Assembly: GCA_965261255.1 (NCBI GenBank) | Contig: CBDHCQ010000004.1 | Location: 3,507,710-3,571,709 of the forward strand | DNA: 64,000 nt | Direction of reading: 5' to 3' | Source: Rhodothermales bacterium | Lineage (GTDB): Bacteria; Bacteroidota; Rhodothermia; Rhodothermales; Bin80 | Part shown: piece after piece, positions 220 to 13,053 of the stretch | How the letters are laid out: the number at the start of each line of letters is the position of its first letter | Numbering within the stretch: the stretch's first letter is position 1 | Notes under the pieces: generated by a model | Told to the model about the DNA's origin: nothing | What the model saw: the letters and a program-made list of their open reading frames with translations, nothing else | Database searches by the model: none | Program-made: the position numbers and the translations under genes

Positions 220-3200
220 TCAATTCGACTGCTTTTTCAAGCTGCGACTCTTCCACAGATAGTAAATAGCCGGAATAACGGCGAGCGTCAATACCGTGGA
301 AGAAATCATTCCTCCCACCATCGGGGTAACAATCGGTTTCATGACTTCTGATCCGGTACCATGGCTCCACAAGATCGGCAACAAACCAGCCACGATAGCC
401 AGCACCGTCATCATTTTCGGGCGCACACGATCAACAGCTCCCACAATGATTGCCTCGTAGAGGTCCCTGGGAGAGGTCATCCGCCCTTCCATAAGCCTTT
501 TGTTGTAGGCCTGATCGAGGTATAGCATCATGATGACTCCCGTTTCCGCAGCAACACCCGCAAGGGCAATAAAGCCGACACCGGCTGCAATGCTGAGGTT
601 GTAGCCAAACATGTACATCAGCCAAATTCCACCAACCAGCGAAAAGGGCAGTGATAACATCACGATCAAACTCTCTGTGACATTCTTAAAATTCAAATAC
701 AGCAGCAAGAAGATGATCAGAAGCGTCAGGGGCAACACAACCTGGAGGCGCCGTCGGGCGCGTTCCATGTACTCGTGTTGCCCACTCCAGATCATGCTGT
801 AACCCTCGGGAAAAGTGACCTGCTCATTCACCGATGCCCGGGCAGTCTCAACATAGGTGCCGATATCAACGTTCTGGAGGTCAATGTAAATCCAGGAGGT
901 CTTTCGAGCATTTTCGCTTTTGATGACCGTGGGACCCTTAACAATACTGAAATCAGCCACATAACTGAGCGGAATTTGAGTTCCTGTAGGGGTAGGGATG
1001 AGGACACGCTCAATTGCGGGCAGGTTGTCACGCAGTTCACGGCTATAGCGTACGTTGACGGGATAGCGCTCTAGGCCCTCAACAGTCTGCGTGACATTCA
1101 TCCCTCCGATGGCGGACATAATTACATCCTGTACATCACCGATGGTCAACCCATACCGGGCCGCCTCCCTACGGTCAATCTCGTAATCCAGAAAATTTCC
1201 CCCAACGGTTTTGTCGGACAATGCGCTCTGGGTGCCAGGTAGAAGCTGTAACACCGCAGCGATCTGTTCCCCCAGATCCGAAAGCACGGTTAAGTCCGGC
1301 CCCATCAGTTTAATGCCTAGTGGGGTTTTAATTCCAGTTGCCAGCATGTCAATCCGTGTCCTGATGGGCATAGTCCAGGCATTGGTTAGGCCGGGAAAGT
1401 TGATAGCACCGTCAAGTTCACTGATCAGTTTCTCCATGGTCATTCCATCGCGCCATTCTTCTTCCGGCTTGAGTGTGATGGTTGTCTCCAACATGGATAG
1501 CGGTGCCGGATCGGTCGCAGTGTCAGCGCGCCCAGCTTTGCCGAGAACATGCTCTACCTCGGGGAAACTCTTGATGATTTTGTCTGTCTGCTGCAAGAGC
1601 TCCTTCACTTTTGTGATACTTATTCCGGGATCTGTCGTGGGCATGTACAGCAAATCGCCTTCATTCAAGGGAGGCATATATTCAGTGCCAAGCTTCCCAA
1701 GAGGATAGATGGTTACAGCAAGGATTAGGAGAGAAGCAGTAATAGTGGCCCACCTGAATTGAAGGACGCGATGAATCACGGGCTGATAGCATCGGATGAG
1801 CAACCGATTTATGGGATTTTTCTTTTCTGGTAGAATTTTACCGCGGACTAGATATCCTATCAAGACAGGGACCGTAGTGATCGCCAAAAGCGCTGATGCG
1901 GCCATCGCATAGGTCTTTGTAAAAGCTAATGGCTTGAATAAGCGCCCCTCCTGCGCCTGCAGGGTGAAGATGGGTAGGAATGAAAGTGTAATGATCAGCA
2001 GCGAGTAGAAAAGAGCAGGCCCCACTTCCTTGCATGCATCAACGATGATTTGCCAGCGGTCTTTCTTCCCCGCATGACGCTCAAGGTGTTTGTGTGTGTT
2101 TTCAACCATTACGATGGCTGCGTCAACCATAGTCCCGATTGCGATAGCAATCCCGCTGAGTGACATGATATTGGCATTGAGGCCTTGTGCATTCATCACC
2201 CAAAACGCAATCAAAATCCCCAGTGGAATCGTGAAGATGGCGACCAGGGCACTACGGAAGTGTACCAGGAACAGGATCGTCACAAGTGCAACGATCAGGC
2301 TTTCCTCGAGAAGTTTGGTTCTCAGGTTGTTGATTGCCCGTTTGATCAGGCTACTACGGTCATAGGCAATTTTAATCTGTACACCTTCCGGCAGGCCTTT
2401 TTCCAATTCTGCCAGCTTTGTCCTTACAGCATCAATAGTCTTGAGTGCATTTTCACCGTAGCGCATGACCACAATACCGCCAACAACTTCTCCTTCGCCA
2501 TCCCAGTCAGTGAGTCCTCGTCGTAGTTCTGGCCCCAGATGTACGTTCGCAACGTTACGGATAAGGATCGGAGTTCCATTTTCATCCACACCAACCGGCG
2601 TGTTCTGAATGTCTGTAATCGATTGGATATACCCTAGGCCGCGAACCATGAATTCGGTCTCTCCCATTTCAATCAACTTCCCTCCCACATCGTTATTACT
2701 TCGCTGTAATGCGACACGTACACTTGATAGGGGCACATCATGGGCCAGGAGTTTATTTGGATCCACCTCGACCTGGTACTGCTTGACGTAGCCACCGATA
2801 GAAGCCACTTCTGCGACTCCCGGCACACTCATTAATTCGTAACGGAGAAACCAGTCTTGAATTGAGCGTAACTGGTGGAGATCGTAGCGATCACCTCCAT
2901 CAAGGACATATTCAAAAACCCATCCCACTCCCGTCGCATCGGGTCCCAGCGTGGGCGTCACGCTCTCGGGCAGGCGATCACCGACATAGTTGAGATATTC
3001 CAGCACACGGCTACGTGCCCAGTAGATATCTGTGCCATCCTCGAAAATGATATAGACAAAGGAGTGTCCAAACGATGAGTAACCACGTACAGCCTTGGCA
3101 AAGGGAACAGACATCATAGCCGTGGTTAAGGGATACGTCACCTGATCTTCTACGACCTGTGGGGCCTGTCCAGGGAACTCGGTGAATACAATGACCTGTA

Positions 3201-3333
3201 CATCACTTAAGTCAGGGATGGCATCCACTGGTGTGCGAAGCATTGCGTAGATCCCGGCGCCTGCAACTGCAAGCGTGAAGAGAATCACGAAAACCCGATT
3301 CTTGACAGAGCTCTCTATAATCTTCTCGAGCAT
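220..3333 (-). CDS. cusA: CusA/SilA-family heavy-metal RND efflux permease (Cu(I)/Ag(I) type)
   Basis: 1037 aa; starts with DAIPDLSDVQVI...GQAPQVVEDQVTYP; motifs LLYMP, PLSMLET and RIDMLATG carry the three Met residues typical of the CusA Cu(I) site; GAVDRVRPKMMT near the C-terminus. Confidence 0.95.
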   Translation of the reverse strand: MLEKIIESSVKNRVFVILFTLAVAGAGIYAMLRTPVDAIPDLSDVQVIVFTEFPGQAPQVVEDQVTYPLTTAMMSVPFAKAVRGYSSFGHSFVYIIFEDGTDIYWARSRVLEYLNYVGDRLPESVTPTLGPDATGVGWVFEYVLDGGDRYDLHQLRSIQDWFLRYELMSVPGVAEVASIGGYVKQYQVEVDPNKLLAHDVPLSSVRVALQRSNNDVGGKLIEMGETEFMVRGLGYIQSITDIQNTPVGVDENGTPILIRNVANVHLGPELRRGLTDWDGEGEVVGGIVVMRYGENALKTIDAVRTKLAELEKGLPEGVQIKIAYDRSSLIKRAINNLRTKLLEESLIVALVTILFLVHFRSALVAIFTIPLGILIAFWVMNAQGLNANIMSLSGIAIAIGTMVDAAIVMVENTHKHLERHAGKKDRWQIIVDACKEVGPALFYSLLIITLSFLPIFTLQAQEGRLFKPLAFTKTYAMAASALLAITTVPVLIGYLVRGKILPEKKNPINRLLIRCYQPVIHRVLQFRWATITASLLILAVTIYPLGKLGTEYMPPLNEGDLLYMPTTDPGISITKVKELLQQTDKIIKSFPEVEHVLGKAGRADTATDPAPLSMLETTITLKPEEEWRDGMTMEKLISELDGAINFPGLTNAWTMPIRTRIDMLATGIKTPLGIKLMGPDLTVLSDLGEQIAAVLQLLPGTQSALSDKTVGGNFLDYEIDRREAARYGLTIGDVQDVIMSAIGGMNVTQTVEGLERYPVNVRYSRELRDNLPAIERVLIPTPTGTQIPLSYVADFSIVKGPTVIKSENARKTSWIYIDLQNVDIGTYVETARASVNEQVTFPEGYSMIWSGQHEYMERARRRLQVVLPLTLLIIFLLLYLNFKNVTESLIVMLSLPFSLVGGIWLMYMFGYNLSIAAGVGFIALAGVAAETGVIMMLYLDQAYNKRLMEGRMTSPRDLYEAIIVGAVDRVRPKMMTVLAIVAGLLPILWSHGTGSEVMKPIVTPMVGGMISSTVLTLAVIPAIYYLWKSRSLKKQSN

Positions 3334-3374: not shown

Positions 3375-4766
3375 TTAATGATTGTGTTGGTGCTCCATCG
3401 GTATTGATTCATCGGTAGCAGAGCGGCTCATCAACGTATCCATATCCGTCATCTGGGTCTCCGAATCTGTTGGCGAAGAGAGCATTTTGCGAAGAGTTTC
3501 CTGGAGTTGACTCTCGCTGTCCAGCATAAACTGGGCGGAGGAGACAACCTGTTCATGTCCAGACAGGCCAGCGAGGATGCGGACATACTGGTTGTCTGGC
3601 CCGCCCTCTTCTCCAATCAAAACTTCACGAGGTTCAAATCGACCATTTCCATGTGCAATGAAAACGATGGTGCGTGTTCCAGAGCGCACGATTGATTCAG
3701 AATGAACGACCAGGGCATCGGGGATTATATGTCCCTGTAATTCCACATTGGCGTACATACCTGGCTTCAATTCCAGACCAGGGTTTAAGAAAATCAGGCG
3801 GACATGGACATCACGTGCTTTTTCTCGCAGGTAGGGATAGATGTAGGACACCCGGCCGGTATAGGTTTTGCCCGGTAAATATGACAGCTCCATTTTTACC
3901 GGCTGTCCATCGCTGATCCAGGGTACTTCATTGTCATAAAAACTGGCGTGTACCCACACCATACTCAGATCGGCGATCTCAAAAAGATCCTGGCCTGCCT
4001 CAATGTATGCCCCTTCAATTGCGTTTCTTTTGACGACAATACCCGTAGCGGGGGCGACCAGCAGGATGGTTTTCTGAATCTCACCGGACTGGGTCAACCG
4101 ATCAACTTCTGCTGAAGGAATATCCCAGTTCTCCAAACGATTCCGGGCGGAAACCAGAAGTCTTTCAGCGTCTTCCCGTATGGATGGAAGACTGCTTTTT
4201 GCAAGTTGCCGGTAGTTACTGAGGGCCAATAAATACTCCTGCTGTGTGGAAACCAATTCGGGAGAATAGATCTCCAGTAATGAATCCCCCTGCTGTACTT
4301 GGTCGCCAACAAAATGAACATGGAGATTCTGAATCCAGCCGGAAACTTTCGTATTCACCAGAAAAAGATTCTCTTCGTCGTACTGAACTTCACCGACCGT
4401 GTGAATCGTGCGGGAGAAATCCAGCCGCTGAACCGCTTCGGTTCGAACTCCCATATTCTGAACTGTGACAGGGTCAATCAACACCGCATTATCTGATTGC
4501 ATCTCGGCATCCTCCTCGTAGACAGGGATCAGATCCATGCCCATCTTTGATTTGCCAGGTTGGTCATAGATCTCTGTCGGATCCATTGGGGCGCGCCAGT
4601 AAAGGATGGTTTGCTCATCCGTCAAATCTGGCTCTTGAGATTGCATCCCTTCCGGTTCAATGGTCAAGCGTCCGAAAAAAAAGCTCGCAACCACGACAAT
4701 CATCAGGAGCAGAATCCCGCCCACTATTTTGAATTGTTTTTGTGTAGTCATCATGCTCTTGGTCAA
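3375..4766 (-). CDS. cusB: CusB-like RND periplasmic adaptor with Met-rich heavy-metal-binding domain
   Basis: N-terminal TM helix; YWRAPMDP...PGKSKMGMDL motif; YSPELVSTQQEYL; LKPGMY; SAQFMLDSES; His-rich tail MEHQHNH; sits between the TolC-family gene and cusA. Confidence 0.92.
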   Translation of the reverse strand: MTKSMMTTQKQFKIVGGILLLMIVVVASFFFGRLTIEPEGMQSQEPDLTDEQTILYWRAPMDPTEIYDQPGKSKMGMDLIPVYEEDAEMQSDNAVLIDPVTVQNMGVRTEAVQRLDFSRTIHTVGEVQYDEENLFLVNTKVSGWIQNLHVHFVGDQVQQGDSLLEIYSPELVSTQQEYLLALSNYRQLAKSSLPSIREDAERLLVSARNRLENWDIPSAEVDRLTQSGEIQKTILLVAPATGIVVKRNAIEGAYIEAGQDLFEIADLSMVWVHASFYDNEVPWISDGQPVKMELSYLPGKTYTGRVSYIYPYLREKARDVHVRLIFLNPGLELKPGMYANVELQGHIIPDALVVHSESIVRSGTRTIVFIAHGNGRFEPREVLIGEEGGPDNQYVRILAGLSGHEQVVSSAQFMLDSESQLQETLRKMLSSPTDSETQMTDMDTLMSRSATDESIPMEHQHNH

Positions 4767-6091
4767 CGAAGTGATGGAAATATGTCAAGATCGGCGAGGG
4801 AGTCGACGCCGAGTACCTGCTCTAGGAGGGCCGTAATCTGCAAGTAGCGGGAGAATGTGTCTTCATAGTCCGTGTTGAGTGTGAACAGCATCCGCTCTGC
4901 ATCCAACAGATCCAGGTAATCTGTATCTCCAGTGGTGTAGGAGTTGAGTGTGGCTTCGAGAACCGTTTCTGCCTGTGGAATAAGGCCCTCTCGAAATAAC
5001 AGGATCTGTTTGGTGACTTCCCCTAGTTGATGAACAAGGCCGGTGATCTCCGTCTTGAATGAAGTTTCAAGCGACTCTCGGTGCGCGTTAATTTCGCTGC
5101 GATATACACGGGCTTCCTCCAGCTGAGCTCGCAACCGAGTTCGTTGAAGCGGTACCTTCAAGAGTACTCCAATAGCCACGGCATCTCGACCCGAAGCGGT
5201 TGCTGGCACATCCGCACTACCAATATCAAAGTAGGTGATGTTCAGGCCGAAGTCTGGTTTGAATTGTTTTCTGGCCAGCAAAATTTCTGCATCTATGCGC
5301 CGCGCAGTTGCACGAAGGGCGTCAATTTCAGGACGTTCGCGTAGAGCGATATCGAGTAGCGCACCGGTATCAAACTCAATGAAGGGCAATGATTCCACCT
5401 GGATGGAGTCAAGGGATAAGTTTGTCGCGGATTGATTCACAAGGTATGCTAGCGTTTTGCCAGCGACGTGTCGCTGTTCCGCGAGCTTGAACTGCAGACG
5501 AGATAGAGCATTTCTCTCCAGTTGTGTTTTCGAGATCGCCTGTTGGACATCCAAGCCTACCTCATAGCGGGTTGCTGCAGTTTGTTCAAAGCTTTCCAGT
5601 CTATTTCGGAAAGCAGAAATATGTCGCTCCTGTTGTTGAATGCGATAGAGTTCGTAGTAGGCTTGCTTGGCTTCAAGGAAAAGGGTTTTTTCGAACGCTT
5701 GTGATTCAAAGTTCTCTGTTTTGGCATTCAGATTGGCGATGGTTCCCCGTAATTTTAGTTTCCCGGGGTAGGGAATGGTTTGTTCAATGCTCCACTGACT
5801 CCGCTGCGTGCCGAGCGCGGTAAGGAGTGAGTAGGGTTGGTAGGTGATTTTCACCGTTGGGTCTGGAAGTGCGGAGACCTGATCTCTTCTATAGGTCAAT
5901 GCTCTTGCCTTCAGACGAGATGCCAGCAGCGACGGGTTGTTGCTGCGGACTTCTTCAAGAAGATCATTGAGGTTCAATAAAGCATTTACGGTCGTATCCG
6001 GCTGATGCTGACCATCAGCAGCGGTCGGGCGCAGTAATAATGCTAGAAATACGACGGCGAAGGTCGCACCAACGAGAAAGCGTTGTTTCAT
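4763..6091 (-). CDS. TolC/CusC-family outer-membrane efflux protein
   Basis: Signal peptide; NNPSL, LPDP, QTIPYPGKL and YTTGDTDYLDLLDAER OEP-type motifs; 4-bp overlap with cusB. Confidence 0.9.
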   Translation of the reverse strand: MKQRFLVGATFAVVFLALLLRPTAADGQHQPDTTVNALLNLNDLLEEVRSNNPSLLASRLKARALTYRRDQVSALPDPTVKITYQPYSLLTALGTQRSQWSIEQTIPYPGKLKLRGTIANLNAKTENFESQAFEKTLFLEAKQAYYELYRIQQQERHISAFRNRLESFEQTAATRYEVGLDVQQAISKTQLERNALSRLQFKLAEQRHVAGKTLAYLVNQSATNLSLDSIQVESLPFIEFDTGALLDIALRERPEIDALRATARRIDAEILLARKQFKPDFGLNITYFDIGSADVPATASGRDAVAIGVLLKVPLQRTRLRAQLEEARVYRSEINAHRESLETSFKTEITGLVHQLGEVTKQILLFREGLIPQAETVLEATLNSYTTGDTDYLDLLDAERMLFTLNTDYEDTFSRYLQITALLEQVLGVDSLADLDIFPSLR

Positions 6092-6094
6092 CAG

Positions 6095-6185
6095 TTCTGA
6101 TCAAATAGAGTAATCCGTTGCAATACATCGAAGTACAGTAGGTCAGCACTTCGGTACTGGAATCACACTATTTCTCAGATCAGAA
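6095..6185 (-). promoter_or_regulatory. Long mRNA hairpin pairing the last codons of the leader ORF with the cusC translation-initiation region
   Basis: TTCTGATC-AAATAG (6095-6108) is complementary to CTATTT-[ctca]-GATCAGAA (6168-6185); inner helices 6110-6116/6159-6166, 6121-6126/6154-6159 and 6129-6136/6146-6153 each contain a G-U pair only on the minus (mRNA) strand. Confidence 0.7.
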
Positions 6186-6627
6186 AGATGAGCAGCAGGG
6201 CCTGCCTGTCTACGGCAGGAAGTGGAGGGATGGTTTTTTGGGAATGCCTTTGATTGAAGTCTCTGAGCACTTCCTTTTCGAAGGGTTTGTGCGTGGGGGA
6301 ATCAGAGAGCGGCTGCAAGTCATTCCGGCAATGGTTTAGAAACAGAGCCTCCTCAACTGCCGGTGTTGCTTCAAGTGTACAACATTGCAGGGTATCCGAA
6401 GAAGGGCAAGGCAGGTTTGTAGCATGCGTCATGCCCCCGTTTTCATGGATGCAGGGAGGAGTCTGATCGGAAGAATGGCTTGGTTCCGATGTAGAATGAT
6501 GGCTCACATGCTCGGCTATCTGACTCATTGCGCAGAGGGGTTGCAGGAGCGGTCCTGCTGCACTCAACAGTAGTCCCACGCAAAGCAGGAGAGGGAGAAG
6601 CGTATGTTTTCTTAGCGCAGAGAGCAT
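6175..6627 (-). CDS. Cys/His-rich exported leader-type protein ending PP...FLI, upstream of the cus operon
   Basis: 150 aa; hydrophobic N-terminus, His-rich linker, CC pair, C-terminus IPPLPAVDRQALLLIFLI; co-oriented 83 bp upstream of the TolC-family gene. Confidence 0.75.
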   Translation of the reverse strand: MLSALRKHTLLPLLLCVGLLLSAAGPLLQPLCAMSQIAEHVSHHSTSEPSHSSDQTPPCIHENGGMTHATNLPCPSSDTLQCCTLEATPAVEEALFLNHCRNDLQPLSDSPTHKPFEKEVLRDFNQRHSQKTIPPLPAVDRQALLLIFLI

Positions 6628-7196
6628 GAAAAGGAGCGTAATTCCTTAGGCCGCGGCGGATCCGAGACAATCCCGTATTAATACTACCGATGTCATTGGA
6701 CTAGGTTCGATTTAGCTGGAGTGCCGATAAAATTCGGTAAATGGTACGTAATAATCCTCTGTCACCGTCTTGAAACTCTGTTAATACACGATTCATGTCA
6801 GGAAATATAATAGACTCCCAAAGTCTTACGGTGGCAGCAAAATCTTCTACAGTGTGAGGAGGCACGATTGCTCAAATGACGTGAAATCAAGTGGACGCGA
6901 TCTTTCCGGGATACTCTTTTCCATCAACATCTTTTGAAATCGTCACAGATCGGTTTGTATGAGGGACCTATGTACAGGCAGACTGCCTGCGAGACTGCCT
7001 ATTGGGGAGGAGTTGTATAAACAGCTCTTGAACTAGCCCTGGTTCGTGTGTTTGGGCAAAAAACGCTAGGTTCTACCATCGCTCCAAGATGCCTTTGTTC
7101 ACTAACTACGTCCCTCCGTTCTCCCCGAAATGGGAACATACGGTTGACAACTGGCGAACCAGGGACGGATAAACTAAATGCTACCGCTCAGCAGTA

Positions 7197-10100
7197 ATGC
7201 CAAAGAAACTGGTTCCTGGCCTGTATGACAAGGTATTTACAGAAGGGAATCATCATGTCGTCGAAAAGGATCCATCGCTGCGCGCGCACACCGAGAAGCT
7301 GCAGAGTCACACAGGAGTCCGACTGCTGTCGCAGCATCTGAGCAAGCTTATTGAGCGTGCACTGAGGAAGTCCAACGACAATTGGGTTGAACTGGCCAAC
7401 GACCTGATTCGGGTCATCGAAAATAATACACAAGGGGGCGTAGTACAGCAATCAGATCTTGTTACAAATACCCGGTTGAAAGAGCTTGCACAAGGCGTTC
7501 AAGCTCAAATGGATACGCAAACCAGACGACCCGGGATACCGCTTTCGTATTCAGAGTTGCTAACGAATGCTTCAAACGATTACCGTATTGGACACGAACT
7601 GAAACGGGAAATTGAGTCCGCCGATCGGATTGATATTCTGATAGCATTTATCAAGTGGTCCGGGCTTCGTCTTGTACGCGAAGCATTGCAGGACTTTGTC
7701 GCAAGGGGAGGAAAGCTGCGGGTGATTACGACGACCTATATGAAGGCGACCGAGCGGCAGGCCATTGATGAACTGATCCAGGTAGGCGCCGAGATTAAGA
7801 TCTCGTATGACACTCGCCGCACACGACTCCACGCAAAAGCATGGTTGCTTCACCGAGAAACGGGTTTTTCAACCGCCTTCGTTGGTTCTTCAAACCTAAG
7901 CGCAGCGGCACAACTGGACGGACTCGAATGGAATGTCCGGCTGTCCAAAGTAGATGCCGGACGAATCATTGACAAAATTGAAGCTGCTTTCAGAAATTAT
8001 TGGGAGGACGTTGAGTTCGAAAGCTATGACGGCAGCCCGGAATGCCGAGAACGATTTGATACAGCTGTAAGGGAAGAGCCTTCGCCTGGACGCATTACGA
8101 GCCTGGAGGTCCATCCTTACCCGTTCCAGCAGGAAATCTTGGATAAGCTGGATGTGGAACGCACGGTCCATGGTCGAACGCGTAATCTTGTTGTTGCAGC
8201 TACCGGTACAGGTAAAACCGTCATGGCCGCATTGGATTATCGTCGACTGGCTCGCCACATAAGTCCTCTGCGCCTCCTGTTCGTTGCCCATAGAGCGGAA
8301 ATCCTGCAGCAGGCGCGTACGACTTTTAGAGATGTCTTGAAGCACAACACCTTTGGGGAAGACTATGTGGGCGGGTCACAGCCCCAGAAATGGGACCATG
8401 TATTTGCTTCCGTTCAGTCTCTTGCAAACTTTGATCTCGATAAGATCAACCCAAAGCATTTCGGGATGATCATTATCGATGAATTTCATCATGCTGCTGC
8501 AAAAACGTATCAGAGACTTCTTGAGCATTTTCATCCTCGCTATCTACTGGGGCTCACTGCGACCCCCGAACGTGCGGACGGAAAGGATATTCTTTCCTGG
8601 TTCGGAGGCCGCGTTGCCGCAGAGCTGAGAGTCTGGGATGCCATTGATCGTGGTCTACTGGTTCCGTTCCATTACTTCGGGCGGCATGACGGTGGAGATT
8701 TGTCTTCTGTGCGATGGGTTCGTGGTAAATATGATGACGCTGAATTGACTCGTCTCTTTACCGCTGATGATATTCGTGTACTGAAGATCCTGAAAGTGGT
8801 CCGAGAGCACATTGCCGATCCTCTGAAGATGCGTGCATTAGGGTTCTGCGTCAGTGTGTCTCATGCTGAATTCATGACGCGAAAATTCAATAGTGCGGGC
8901 ATTCCTGCCGCCTGCATTACGGGGAAGACTCCCAGAGAAGAACGAAAACGTGCACAAGACCGGCTGAGAGCGTGCAAGGTGAACATACTCTTCTCCGTGG
9001 ATGTGCTCGGAGAAGGGGTGGACATTCCTCCGGTGGATACCATCCTGATGCTGAGACCAACCAACAGTGCTACTGTGTTTATTCAGCAATTGGGGCGTGG
9101 ACTCCGTTTCGCTGGGGGCAAAACCTGTCTAACCGTCTTGGACTTCATCAGCAACAGTGCAAGAAAGTTTCGGTTCGACTATGCCCTTGGGGCCATGCTT
9201 GGGAGGGTTACACGCAAATCCGTTAAAGAGGCGGTTGAGAAGGATTTTCCTGCCCTGCCGTCAGGATGCTCTCTCCAGTTGGATCAGGAGAGTAAGGAAG
9301 TCGTTCTGAACAATCTAAAGGCGCAACTTCGTTATGGGTCGAGAGAACTGGTGCGCTTGCTTCGTCGCCTGGGAGACCGGACCACCTTGAAGACTTTCCT
9401 GGATGCAGCGGAGTTGTCAATTGAAGATTTCTATTCCAAAAGACCCAACAGTTTTACGTTATTGCGCCGGAGAGCTGGTTTCTCCGCGGCCAGTGAGGGG
9501 CCGGACGAGGCTAATATCGGAAGCAGATTAAAACTGTTGACTCATGCGGATGACGCTTCCCGGCTCGACTTCATACGCCAAGCCGCCCAGGGCAGTCTGA
9601 GCGTGAGCGAGTTGTCCGAACGGGATCGGCGCCGTCTCCTCATGTTGGTGTGCGTGCTGCTGGGTGGGAAGGCGGCAAACGATCTACGCGCAGGCTACAA
9701 CAAAATCCTTGCTCATCCTGCTATCTGCGAGGAACTCATTTCGCTGACAGGTTTATTGAAAGAAAACATCGCACATACGCCTTCCCAGTATGTAATCGCT
9801 CCCGAGGTTCCGCTGGAGTTACATACGAGATATTCAATGCGGGAAATAGTTTCTGCGTTCAATAGAGTAGGAAAGGGGGGATTGCATCCTATACGGGAGG
9901 GGATTCGTTTTGATAAAGCAACAAGCTGCAATATGATTTTCGTAACTATTCACAAAAATGAAAAGGACTATGCCAGCACTGCAATGTACCGGGACTATGC
10001 GATCAACGCCCATCGCTTTCATTGGCAATCCCAACACAACACTAGGTCAGGCAGCATGACGGGCCGTCGCCATACACACCATGAAACTCTTGGGATAACC

Positions 10101-10277
10101 CCTCTGCTCTTTGTGCGTACCGCCAAGAAGACCGATTATGGGCTTACAATGCCGTACCAGTTCTTGGGACCGGCATCATACCAGCGGCATGAAGGAGAAC
10201 AGCCGATGAGCATTATCTGGGAAATGAAGTACCCGATTCCAGCCGACATTGTCCGAAACATGCGTCTTGCTGCATAG
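7197..10277 (+). CDS. PLD(HKD) nuclease - SF2 helicase - DUF3427 fusion (SauUSI-like type IV restriction enzyme candidate)
   Basis: LHAK...VGSSNLS PLD motif; helicase motifs AATGTGKT, DEFHH, TATP and QQLGRGLR; C-terminal YRDYAIN..RFHWQSQ typical of DUF3427. Confidence 0.88.
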   Translation: MPKKLVPGLYDKVFTEGNHHVVEKDPSLRAHTEKLQSHTGVRLLSQHLSKLIERALRKSNDNWVELANDLIRVIENNTQGGVVQQSDLVTNTRLKELAQGVQAQMDTQTRRPGIPLSYSELLTNASNDYRIGHELKREIESADRIDILIAFIKWSGLRLVREALQDFVARGGKLRVITTTYMKATERQAIDELIQVGAEIKISYDTRRTRLHAKAWLLHRETGFSTAFVGSSNLSAAAQLDGLEWNVRLSKVDAGRIIDKIEAAFRNYWEDVEFESYDGSPECRERFDTAVREEPSPGRITSLEVHPYPFQQEILDKLDVERTVHGRTRNLVVAATGTGKTVMAALDYRRLARHISPLRLLFVAHRAEILQQARTTFRDVLKHNTFGEDYVGGSQPQKWDHVFASVQSLANFDLDKINPKHFGMIIIDEFHHAAAKTYQRLLEHFHPRYLLGLTATPERADGKDILSWFGGRVAAELRVWDAIDRGLLVPFHYFGRHDGGDLSSVRWVRGKYDDAELTRLFTADDIRVLKILKVVREHIADPLKMRALGFCVSVSHAEFMTRKFNSAGIPAACITGKTPREERKRAQDRLRACKVNILFSVDVLGEGVDIPPVDTILMLRPTNSATVFIQQLGRGLRFAGGKTCLTVLDFISNSARKFRFDYALGAMLGRVTRKSVKEAVEKDFPALPSGCSLQLDQESKEVVLNNLKAQLRYGSRELVRLLRRLGDRTTLKTFLDAAELSIEDFYSKRPNSFTLLRRRAGFSAASEGPDEANIGSRLKLLTHADDASRLDFIRQAAQGSLSVSELSERDRRRLLMLVCVLLGGKAANDLRAGYNKILAHPAICEELISLTGLLKENIAHTPSQYVIAPEVPLELHTRYSMREIVSAFNRVGKGGLHPIREGIRFDKATSCNMIFVTIHKNEKDYASTAMYRDYAINAHRFHWQSQHNTRSGSMTGRRHTHHETLGITPLLFVRTAKKTDYGLTMPYQFLGPASYQRHEGEQPMSIIWEMKYPIPADIVRNMRLAA

Positions 10278-10420
10278 CGATTGGACTACATTGCGTACTT
10301 GAATATCAGGTCAATCGAGGTCAGGAAATTTCGCAGGAACCAAGTAGTCCGCGGCGATCAAAATTATTGCATCACCAGATCGATCATGAGACCGGAGGAT
10401 CAGGATGCTCTGGACGACCT

Positions 10421-11380
10421 TCAGTAATAAGTACCACAGAGCGTAAGACCCCGTTGGGTCAGCCAGTGACTGACAGCCCGTACGGCCTCGCTGCTTCCAC
10501 GCGTTGCGAGTGGCTTTCCCAGATTCATGACGCTCAGTAACAAATCTGCCTGAGCTCGTCTTGCGGGGCGGAGTTGTATGAAAAGCTCCTGCTCCAGCTC
10601 TGGTTCGTGTGATCGCACTATAAACACTAGGCCCTCCTGACCAATCATGCGCATTACATCAAGCACAACGACGTGACCGTCCGCGAAATGGTGAACCACC
10701 TTGTCAAATTCTGTGACTGCCGGAATTGAACCGTTCAAGAGGGCGTGATGCATGTCGAGTTCTTTGCGAATTTTAGGTGGGATCGGCGAGGGATGTCCAG
10801 TGTGTTTTTGAGCGGACGCGTGATAAAAACTGCGTCCCGCTGCAGACCACTTGGTTGCATATTTTGTGTGAAGCGCAGCTGACGGGGGTGTGGTTTCAGT
10901 TACCCTGTAGTATCCAGAGTTGTGTGCCAAAGTTAGGGCTTGTCTAAAGTAAGGTTCACTGTCTGTAGTAAGGAGCAGTTTACCCCCGAGTTCAAGACGT
11001 GCGGAGAGTAATTCAAAAAATGAGGCCTGGAGTAACCGCCGTGATGCATGCCGTTTCTTGTACCAGGGATCCGGGAAATTCACGTAAACTCTTGAAAGAC
11101 TTCCGTCGCAAAACAGGTTCCTCAGTAGAAACAAGCCGCTGCCGTGGTAGAGACGAACATTGGATAATCCTGCACGGCGTACACGCTTGAATGCTCGGGC
11201 GGCCGATGCGTGGGCTACATCCGCTCCGATAAAATTCCATTCAGGATGTGCCTGGGCGACAGAGGTCAAGAATCCGCCGTCCCCGAACCCGACTTCCAAT
11301 ACCAGTGGTGCCTCTCGCTGAAAAACCGCTACGTTCGCCGCCGGGAAAGACAGGCTCTGCAGGTCAAGCAGTATTGGCAT
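10421..11380 (-). CDS. trmB: tRNA (guanine-N7)-methyltransferase with C-terminal extension
   Basis: LEVGFGDG SAM motif; NFPDPWYKKRH..RRL; TKY. Confidence 0.9.
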   Translation of the reverse strand: MPILLDLQSLSFPAANVAVFQREAPLVLEVGFGDGGFLTSVAQAHPEWNFIGADVAHASAARAFKRVRRAGLSNVRLYHGSGLFLLRNLFCDGSLSRVYVNFPDPWYKKRHASRRLLQASFFELLSARLELGGKLLLTTDSEPYFRQALTLAHNSGYYRVTETTPPSAALHTKYATKWSAAGRSFYHASAQKHTGHPSPIPPKIRKELDMHHALLNGSIPAVTEFDKVVHHFADGHVVVLDVMRMIGQEGLVFIVRSHEPELEQELFIQLRPARRAQADLLLSVMNLGKPLATRGSSEAVRAVSHWLTQRGLTLCGTYY

Positions 11381-11390
11381 ACAAAGAATA

Positions 11391-12428
11391 TCAGGCGTAC
11401 AGGTACGCCATGTCTATGTGTCTGGCCCCGTTTGCGTCTGCGACCGCCATTCGTCCTTTCCCTCGAATACGTGCTCCCGCCACTTCACCGGCTTTATTGA
11501 GCGCATAGAACGAAACATTGAAGGCGGGTTCGCCCGCTTCATTTTGCAGTCGGGCCAGGTGTGTGTGCTGTGCAATGCGCTCACATGCATACAGGCACGC
11601 TTGCTCGGGACTGTCTCCCATACGCATACGCTCTACAATCAGAAAGCTACAGCAGTTTTCCAGATTTGCCTCTCCCCGTCCGGTGGAACCAGCAGCCCCG
11701 ACTTCGTTATCGCAGTAAAGACCGGCGCCGATAATAGGAGAATCGCCTACACGCCCAGGGATTTTGAAAGCCAGTCCGCTTGTTGTAGTGACGCTGCTGA
11801 TATTGCCCTGCAGGTCGATCGCGGAGCAATGGATGGTTCCCCAGTGGTCATAGTTGCGTTGCATTGCTTCTCCCAGATCACGATCCTCCGGGCCGTGAGG
11901 CGGCAGGTAGTCATCCCGGTTGGAGAGATTTTCCCGCCAGCGGACCCAGATTTCACGGGCACGCTCAGTGAGCAGGTTTTCAATCGGAAACCCATGCATA
12001 CGCGCGAATTCCTGTGCCCCTTTGGCCACGAGCAGTACATGATCGGTACGTTGAAGAACTTGCTGTGCGACCTTGGACGGATATTTAATTCCCTGGATTG
12101 AGGCGACGGCTCCGGCACGACCAGTTGGGCCGTGCATGACGGCAGAGTCCAACTCAACGATTCCGTCTGCATTGGGGAGGCCACCGTAGCCCACAGAGGT
12201 GTCGTTTGGATCTTCCTCTACCAGGTTAACCCCCGCAATGATGGCGTCAAGGGCATCTGCTCCGGCGTTGATTTCCTCAACCGCACGTGCCACGGCCGCG
12301 AGACCATTACCGCTAGCAATTGCGACGGGGCCCGCGAAGGGGCGAATTTTTGGTCGGAGGACTGCTGCGGCGCTGGCTGCTGAACCGGTACGGATAAAAT
12401 CACGTCGGGTTATGGGGTTGTTTGTCAT
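11391..12428 (-). CDS. N(4)-(beta-N-acetylglucosaminyl)-L-asparaginase / Ntn-hydrolase, Tat signal
   Basis: TRRDFI twin-arginine signal; SVGYGGLPN; GTI autocleavage Thr; TTTSG; GRVGDSPIIGAG; TGRGE. Confidence 0.88.
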   Translation of the reverse strand: MTNNPITRRDFIRTGSAASAAAVLRPKIRPFAGPVAIASGNGLAAVARAVEEINAGADALDAIIAGVNLVEEDPNDTSVGYGGLPNADGIVELDSAVMHGPTGRAGAVASIQGIKYPSKVAQQVLQRTDHVLLVAKGAQEFARMHGFPIENLLTERAREIWVRWRENLSNRDDYLPPHGPEDRDLGEAMQRNYDHWGTIHCSAIDLQGNISSVTTTSGLAFKIPGRVGDSPIIGAGLYCDNEVGAAGSTGRGEANLENCCSFLIVERMRMGDSPEQACLYACERIAQHTHLARLQNEAGEPAFNVSFYALNKAGEVAGARIRGKGRMAVADANGARHIDMAYLYA

Positions 12429-12471
12429 GGGAGAAAAAGGTGAGTCTGACCGGTTAAGTTACTCAAAGTAG

Positions 12472-13053
12472 TTATTGACTTAGAGCAAGCTGAACAAAAT
12501 CTTCAGCTTTGTCGACTTCGGGGTGGGCGCGCATGACCCTGCGCAACAGTAGTTCGGCTTTGTGACGCGAAAGCCCTAGCGTCTCGAGAGCGGTGCACGC
12601 ATCTGCCCGGGCGGTTGCAACTCCGGCCGTATCTGTTCCTGCCAGATCCAGCTCGCTCATGCGATCAACCAGCTCAACCACGAGTCGTTCGGCAGTCTTG
12701 CGGCCGACGCCATTGATTCGCTGCAGCATAGGAGGCTCCCTCAAAGTAATATGTTGCACCAGTTCCGCTGGTGTCATAGTTGAAAGTGCCGCAATGGCAA
12801 TCCGTGGCCCCACTCCAGATACACTAATGAACAACCTGAAAATCGCCCGTTCTCCAGAAGAAAAGAAACCATATAATTGTTCAATGTCTTCCCGGACATG
12901 GTGATATGTGAGCAGTTGTACCTTATTGCCGGTATCAGGTAGTCGTTCAAAGGTGGACATGGGTATAAAAACCCGGTATCCTATCCCGTTTACATCAATG
13001 ATTGCATGGGTTGGTCCTTTGCGACTTAGTGTACCTTTAATGTATTCAATCAT
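12472..13053 (-). CDS. ruvA: Holliday junction branch migration protein RuvA
   Basis: MIEYIKG...VNGIGY; VRED...LYGF; VSGVGPRIA and GVGRKTAERLVVEL HhH motifs. Confidence 0.95.
   Translation of the reverse strand: MIEYIKGTLSRKGPTHAIIDVNGIGYRVFIPMSTFERLPDTGNKVQLLTYHHVREDIEQLYGFFSSGERAIFRLFISVSGVGPRIAIAALSTMTPAELVQHITLREPPMLQRINGVGRKTAERLVVELVDRMSELDLAGTDTAGVATARADACTALETLGLSRHKAELLLRRVMRAHPEVDKAEDFVQLALSQ

Follow-up and report, generated by a model that had tools for sequence, protein, structure and literature searches.

A conserved hairpin between a small leader gene and cusC in Rhodothermales is predicted to hide the cusC start

The window analysed here is the whole stretch of 64,000 nucleotides taken from a Rhodothermales bacterium (GenBank assembly GCA_965261255.1, contig CBDHCQ010000004.1). 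Its minus strand carries a cusCBA-type operon headed by a small leader ORF, and the end of the leader faces the start region of cusC in a predicted mRNA hairpin. The features are as follows:

220..3333, minus strand: CusA/CzcA-family RND permease (TIGR00914, 1253.6 bits, over cut-off)
3375..4766, minus strand: cusB-like periplasmic adaptor, overlapping the cusC stop codon (HlyD_D23; weak heavy-metal-binding domain)
4763..6091, minus strand: cusC-like outer-membrane efflux protein of 442 aa (PF02321), the putatively gated gene
6088..6102, minus strand: 3' arm of the hairpin, GAUCAGAA (6102-6095; -11 to -4 of cusC) plus GAUGA including the AUG; predicted occluded initiation region, without AGGA/GGAG
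6103..6173, minus strand: inner intergenic stem-loop, AAAUAG/CUAUUU, GUGAUUC/GGAUUAC, CAGUAC/GUAUUG and CGAAGUGC/GUACUUCG (fold, clade alignments)
6145-6137, minus strand: 9-nt loop of the inner stem-loop
6174..6177, minus strand: UGAG bulge with the leader stop codon (fold; partly or fully paired in many relatives)
6178..6185, minus strand: conserved anti-initiation 5' arm UUCUGAUC within the F-L-I codons, with GAUCAGAA as partner (fold, covariation)
6187..6191, minus strand: 5' arm of the outermost helix, UCAUC, pairing with GAUGA over the cusC AUG (fold; present in the own clade)
6175..6627, minus strand: leader ORF, 150 aa, UGA stop (ORF, conservation, dN/dS)

Among solved structures, E. 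coli CusA is closest to the permease (1256 bits, against 572 for ZneA). The two align through the LLYMP, METT and RIDML stretches, which we take to carry the Cu(I)/Ag(I) methionines, and the pump is of the CusA type (copper/silver). In this genome, which is 97% complete, models of the CsoR, CueR and CusR type gave no match over cut-off; MerR and response-regulator genes that score below it occur elsewhere. Divergent from the leader, on the plus strand (7197-10277), lies a gene for a 1026-aa protein with PLD-like nuclease, ResIII helicase and DUF3427 parts, which is probably a restriction or defence enzyme. Two further clusters were noted in passing. At L001 (6467-9949, minus strand; contig C4, about 3580500-3584000), two small Cys-rich ORFs with signal peptides (104 and 95 aa) head a cluster that also encodes two exported proteins of about 340-390 aa and a thioredoxin-like CPYC protein; presumably it resembles a secreted disulphide-peptide cluster. 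At L160, 3' of cusA (8778-11625, plus strand), lie what we take from motif labels to be an NYN-like protein and a KAP-like P-loop NTPase, and a ferritin-like gene follows this pair (12031-12555).

The leader protein is composed of a hydrophobic N-terminus, Cys32, a His-rich stretch, Cys74, Cys82-Cys83 and a PP pair at 134-135, and ends in DRQALLLIFLI, followed by UGA. Its basic N-terminus and hydrophobic helix (residues 10-24) are conserved, and the N-terminus is likely a Sec signal. Searches of the 150 aa against Pfam and NCBIfam gave no match, and the named relatives come from Rhodothermales/Rhodothermaceae genomes. By profile search the leader is single-copy in this genome; a second copy suggested by a weak tblastn match (E 0.64) was rejected, as neither the profile search nor the ORFs at that site support it. 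The dN/dS values of the ORF (0.25-0.47 in seven pairs) show a protein under purifying selection; for the last 15 codons they range from 0 to 0.26 in six pairs and reach 0.87 in one. The AlphaFold model (pLDDT 64.6) has helices at 10-24, 26-39 and 138-149, with no fold between them. Across 91 leader sequences, C32, C82 and C83 are at least 90% conserved and L149 is invariant. The central region holds 5.3 His on average, and the Cys/His motif has the make-up of a putative metal-binding site. The distance from the CC motif to the stop codon is 60-70 residues in 98 of the 102 leaders with a CC in range (about 67 in the window leader); its interquartile range is 67-69 in the 65 of 116 database representatives that have both anchors, compared with 72-83 for the N-terminal half. 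Leaders are otherwise indel-rich and unstructured, yet this spacing is fixed.

A sequence-only reading of this DNA had proposed a 91-nt mRNA hairpin at 6095..6185 that bulges out the leader stop codon and ends 3 nt before the cusC AUG. Positions 6080-6200 of the minus strand indeed fold into one long hairpin of -40.8 kcal/mol, with identical MFE and centroid structures, which none of 200 shuffled sequences matched (z -6.81). The 91 nt alone reach -34.1 kcal/mol (z -6.17), and the plus strand of 6080-6200 reaches -31.9 (z -2.77). The UGAG bulge (6177-6174) and the stem end 3 nt before the AUG (6091) are both found in the fold. Every proposed helix also recurs, with the correction that GUGAUUCC shares one C with CAGUAC, so that the fold has GUGAUUC/GGAUUAC. 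A fifth helix extends the stem, in which UCAUC (6191-6187) pairs with GAUGA (6092-6088) and covers the AUG itself. Instead of the three G-U wobbles counted before, the fold has four among 40 pairs. That wobbles pair only on the coding strand had been read as a sign of selection on RNA. This asymmetry holds at the present locus and in 25 of 30 close loci when judged by z-score. Judged by raw energy, it favours the coding strand in only 53 of 99 loci, and the argument is therefore weak on its own. Covariance models of Rfam gave no match at E ≤ 1 in 5800-7300, and a promoter scan gave no sigma-70 site on the minus strand. In contigs of a relative of about 95% identity, only two positions within 6080-6200 differ (6141 and 6145), both in the loop. 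Two metatranscriptome runs from a single study contain contigs of this relative that span the leader-cusC junction and end at 6649 and 6692; these are contigs, one with a loose end, from runs without a silent control, and no conclusion is drawn from them.

To place the hairpin among relatives, the analysis took the 30 best-matching cusC loci and added 100 upstream regions from another search, of which about 150 matches were listed. The leader lies upstream of cusC in 30/30 and 86/100 of these, i.e. 116 of the 130 homologues fetched. The 14 leaderless loci (L048, L049, L051-L054, L056, L058, L076, L085, L089, L094, L096 and L114), which form a natural contrast group, were dropped, and the 116 remaining loci gave 109 distinct arm/start pairs. 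Pairing was counted between the last four leader codons plus stop and positions -20..+2 of cusC, with cusC starts picked by script or by eye, some of which may be wrong. At least six expected base pairs were found in 88/109 loci and in 84 of the 98 with spacers of 60-160 nt; of 127 same-strand gene pairs from this genome that served as controls, with crudely called starts, 5 reached this number. Fewer than six pairs were predicted in 21/109 loci, where some starts may be mis-chosen. A leader subfamily with Trp in its tail (WTATF..; L095, L098, L110, L111, L118 and L121), often with UAG or UAA stops, pairs weakly with the chosen cusC start (0-5.9 bp); either their geometry differs or the starts were wrongly picked.

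Pairing peaks at -8..+2 around the leader stop codon and at -15..-4 of cusC. Spacers range from 50 to 328 nt as the inner part varies in length, and three close relatives keep the same outer helix with spacers of 152-323 nt instead of about 90. This distribution bears on a mode of control like that of CruR, in which the position of the ribosome would decide on Rho termination or on RNase III-type cleavage of the stem, with start occlusion secondary. CruR acts through Rho (accessible text of PMC9426467), the cutF stem-loop also affects mRNA stability (accessible text of PMC9973294), and the stem is long here (40 bp with bulges). The part that is conserved and co-varies throughout the order is nevertheless the helix between leader end and start (-15 to -4 of cusC), and the stretch 3' of the stem lacks the U-tract of an intrinsic terminator. 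We consider control of this kind very unlikely. The stem was also rejected as an intrinsic terminator as such: it is absent from the list of the terminator scan and, with the cusC start directly 3' of it, no U-tract follows.

Covariation was assessed at several levels. The last leader residue varies (I, T, L, V, R, N, S or C) and changes in its partner compensate, with codon/partner combinations ATC/GAT, GTC/GAC, AAT/ATT, CGT/ACG, TGC/GCA and CTC/GAG. On a plain MAFFT alignment of 25 loci, RNAalifold recovered only six invariant outer pairs, without double changes. Because the inner region misaligns, clade alignments and an alignment-free swap test were used instead. For the inner helices of an 11-sequence clade, 96.6% of cells are paired and four pairs changed on both sides, against 1.1 in shuffled alignments, a count biased towards the structure, which came from this very alignment. 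In the own clade (five sequences) 1 of 43 pairs changed on both sides, which is too little variation to count. In the swap test, cognate duplexes of leader arm and start region averaged -12.7 kcal/mol and non-cognate ones -9.0, with none of 10,000 permutations coming near. The signal vanishes when the arm is shifted by at least 9 nt or the start region by 20 nt. Since related loci are not independent, the test was repeated on 32 disjoint pairs from a FastTree tree built with the paired codons left out, the arms of each pair differing at two or more nucleotides. Cognate pairing was better in 27 of these 32 independent pairs and worse in five (sign test p 1e-4), against 20 to 12 for a control arm. 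Covariation is stronger evidence for an RNA structure than strand asymmetry. We are nearly certain that the hairpin exists as an RNA element under selection and that it conceals the start of cusC.

The same codons also carry the end of a conserved peptide. Leu at position -2 is kept in 105/109 leaders, with CTG as codon in 85 of these 105 against 220 of 867 Leu codons elsewhere in the leaders, and synonymous recoding of the leader end weakens the pairing in 104/109 loci; both argue for a constraint on RNA. Leu is nonetheless the residue at 20 of the 24 penultimate codons other than CTG, and L/F, L/A, H/Q and R/L persist at positions -6 to -10 with mixed codons. Residues -2, -3 and -6 to -10 of the tail are conserved with varied codons, which argues for a constraint on the peptide. 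The suggestion that the terminal FLI is kept partly for RNA pairing is supported and falls into two parts: the last residue co-varies with its partner, whereas at -2 the amino acid Leu itself is retained, with a strongly biased codon. The leader end is under RNA and peptide constraint alike, with its last residue free. The stop codon is UGA in 102/109 leaders against 597 of 1563 long ORFs of this genome, a contrast that is inflated by genome G+C and kinship.

Occlusion of the start does not appear to depend on a Shine-Dalgarno (SD) sequence. Among 1384 crudely called starts of this genome, AGGA occurs at -16..-4 in 5.1%, against 3.5% upstream, and the 16S 3' end reads CACCUCAU. This end lies outside the window, near position 3476383 (plus strand) of contig C4 (GGAUCACCUCAUAAA), and carries a variant anti-SD with CCUCAU replacing CCUCCU. 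AGGA and GGAG are absent before the present cusC, and UCAGGAA is found in many relatives. The label ‘SD sequestration’ was rejected for this locus on these grounds: no AGGA/GGAG, SD words barely enriched and a variant 16S end. Rhodothermus and Salinibacter show no SD logo, and weak structure strongly inhibits initiation in Prevotella, according to the accessible part of PMC3155529. Because SD words are scarce in the genome, the 16S end is a variant and this cusC lacks AGGA, the stem likely blocks initiation by structure rather than by hiding an SD.

The effect of a translating ribosome was modelled with a footprint mask of assumed size (-18 to +12 from the P site), moved codon by codon along the leader. 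Without a ribosome, opening cusC -18..+12 costs 18.3 kcal/mol, whereas the median for 120 other genes is 9.8 and two of them reach 18.3; the initiation region is thus predicted to be sequestered, as had been claimed. A ribosome with its P site anywhere from codon -10 to -20 makes no difference (17.6-19.4); the cost falls to about 15 at codons -5 to -8, and is 6.6 at the last codon, with the stop codon in the A site. In 32 loci (every third eligible locus) the mean cost drops from 14.7 to 8.2, declining from codon -6. That a ribosome at the leader end would melt the stem therefore holds in this model, and with good confidence we regard the hairpin as likely opened by the leader's own ribosome.

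Where along the leader such a ribosome would pause is a separate matter. A CutF-type, EF-P-dependent stall at PP 134-135 might regulate and act on the hairpin indirectly, through queueing, arrival timing at the stop codon or refolding. From -13 to -18, Pro is more frequent than any other residue, PP occurs in the last 30 residues of 78/109 leaders, and the distance from CC to PP (about 50 residues) is near the motif-to-arrest spacing of 41-45 of CutF and CruR. A P site at codons -12 to -20, however, leaves the opening cost unchanged (17.9-19.4 vs 18.3), and the 31/109 leaders without PP in the last 30 residues, including most of the own genus, keep the hairpin. Because the cost drops only at the very end, a dwell there would free cusC and a stall at PP 134-135 would not; regulation by the prolines is, if anything, less probable still than control of the CruR kind. 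None of the 109 leaders has PP in its last six residues, and neither RAPP, PPP nor any other known arrest motif is found at the end.

The lack of a known arrest motif suits a simpler account, plain translational coupling, in which each terminating ribosome briefly opens the stem and cusC output tracks leader translation. The leader would then be a small periplasmic metal buffer or chaperone, and any metal control would lie elsewhere. Every ribosome on the leader has to pass through the codons that hold the 5' arm, and all covariation results fit this account equally well. It leaves unexplained why the CC-to-stop spacing is fixed in an indel-rich, unstructured protein and why tail residues -2, -3 and -6 to -10 are conserved with varied codons, and a dedicated copper regulator over cut-off was not found in this genome. 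We judge plain coupling unlikely.

The reading that we prefer, and consider reasonably probable, is that translation of cusCBA awaits a ribosome dwelling at the leader stop or no more than about six codons away from it, and that this dwell is probably lengthened by copper or silver binding to the exported His/Cys region. The leader end pairs with the cusC start region, as hairpin, position and covariation show by sequence and folding, and in the model only a ribosome in the last six or so codons would free that region. The leader would be exported co-translationally, with Cys-Cys reaching the periplasm as the ribosome nears the end. Given the lengths of the ribosomal tunnel and the translocon, a spacing of about 67 residues would put CC just into the periplasm at termination. 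Metal binding would then delay the last elongation steps or release at UGA, while the H/Q-x-L-x-x-x-x-F-L tail would sit in the exit tunnel; both steps are modelled on CutF. The overlap of the two genes suggests that cusB is translationally coupled to cusC, and cusA would follow in the same operon. A regulated dwell with metal as its trigger is what we infer from this analogy.

The closest known parallel is CutF of Rhodobacter capsulatus, which binds Cu and stalls at a terminal PPP, thereby melting a stem-loop over the cutO SD, a mode of action shown by experiment (accessible text of PMC9973294 and bioRxiv 10.1101/2025.02.05.636593). In the list of CutF-like genes, which is rich in Bacteroidota, OEP (CusC-type) genes rank with the most frequent neighbours (accessible text of PMC9973294); the accessible supplement text, its protein list File S1 aside, names no Rhodothermales genera. 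Both systems have a small, Cys-bearing cis leader, of the Sec type in CutF and likely so here, and a stem-loop that hides the start of a copper-detoxification gene (PMC9973294 and, in its accessible part, PMC8456105), and opening needs a ribosome near the leader end, as modelled here. They differ in that CutF ends in PPPRL with CxxxC about 45 residues upstream, whereas the window leader ends in F-L-I-UGA with CC 67 residues upstream. The CutF stem-loop is described, in the accessible text, as intergenic with an anti-SD; here the last codons and the stop form the 5' arm, in a genome nearly without SD enrichment. Compared with the CutF-like rule set of PMC9973294, the spacer of 83 nt is within the rule and the leader length of 150 aa exactly at the limit. 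PP at 134-135 of 150 falls just outside the position rule, within which 34/109 relatives fall. As in the CutF mechanism, the initiation region of a metal-handling gene that comes next is concealed in a stem-loop, by prediction and covariation.

CruR of Bordetella pertussis (DUF2946; accessible text of PMC9426467) likewise keeps a constant spacing between its metal motif and its C-terminal motif and exerts post-transcriptional control over metal-handling genes. It shuts off an importer through Rho, independently of the signal peptide, whereas in the present case an exporter is targeted and translation initiation is what the conserved element occludes. The Pfam DUF2946 (CruR) profile matched none of 21 aligned leaders. 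In place of its CXXC and C-terminal RAPP signature, the window leader has C-x7-CC and ends in IFLI, and CxxC is present in 15/109 leaders. The leader resembles CutF in layout, yet it lacks the DUF2946 match, the CXXC/RAPP signature and the terminal PP.

The HYC_CC_PP proteins of Bacteroidota (NF047658) share a signal-like N-terminus, PP about 12 residues from the end and an F/Y-L/R-I ending. At the curated cut-off, the window leader and 20 relatives gave no match, and this genome and seven other genomes of the order that were searched held none. The leader lacks the HYC motif, and at least six end-to-start pairs occur in only 10/27 HYC_CC_PP loci. The leader profile reaches one member, P0129 (E 8.9e-4; hhalign 89.8% over the N-terminal 48 columns). 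In 26/28 loci the CC motif lies 68-78 residues before the stop codon. HYC_CC_PP genes precede CusA, TonB-dependent receptor, CopZ/MerP-like and MbnP-like genes, and the ten downstream genes scanned are mostly metal-handling, by matches below cut-off. Each of two near-identical HYC_CC_PP-like copies (L158 and L159, genome G357) lies at a contig end, and a frame change directly behind PP deprives L159 of the conserved tail.

CopL of Xanthomonas/Stenotrophomonas (NF033807) and CzcI of Cupriavidus are also cis-acting small genes before copper or RND efflux genes. Weak CopL matches, all below cut-off, were found in 1/21 and 4/40 leader family members scanned, and CzcI has no C-terminal proline motif according to the accessible text of PMC9973294. 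A literature search, which covered largely papers outside subscription, gave no stop-codon mechanism for CopL or CzcI and nothing on the leader family, on HYC_CC_PP function or on stop-proximal metal-sensing arrest. In TnaC, a ribosome held at the leader stop codon controls the downstream genes; its ligand, however, is cytoplasmic and sensed within the tunnel, and the outcome is that Rho is blocked. Arrest peptides of this kind, which act at the stage of termination, are mentioned in the accessible text of PMC9973294.

We tentatively propose, as a possibility rather than an expectation, that a putative class of metal-sensing leaders in Rhodothermales, probably together with the HYC_CC_PP proteins, arrests the ribosome at termination and not at prolines: a hydrophobic F-L-x-UGA tail would hold the ribosome when the periplasmic Cys-Cys, at a fixed distance of about 67-72 residues upstream, binds metal. 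In this equally tentative reading, the terminal codons would double as an anti-initiation arm in a lineage that hardly uses SD sequences. The general principle is already published, and the leader would be a CutF variant without a terminal proline run. The predicted RNA geometry differs from that of CutF and CruR, with the regulatory ribosome in the last six or so codons or at the stop, without terminal prolines. CutF-type metal sensing would be extended to a lineage that makes little use of SD sequences and whose representative here has no copper regulator recognisable over cut-off, and an unannotated, order-wide leader gene gains a testable function. If true, termination arrest would be controlled across the membrane by an extracytoplasmic ligand, and the tail would be a new type of arrest peptide that suggests a function for the HYC_CC_PP family.
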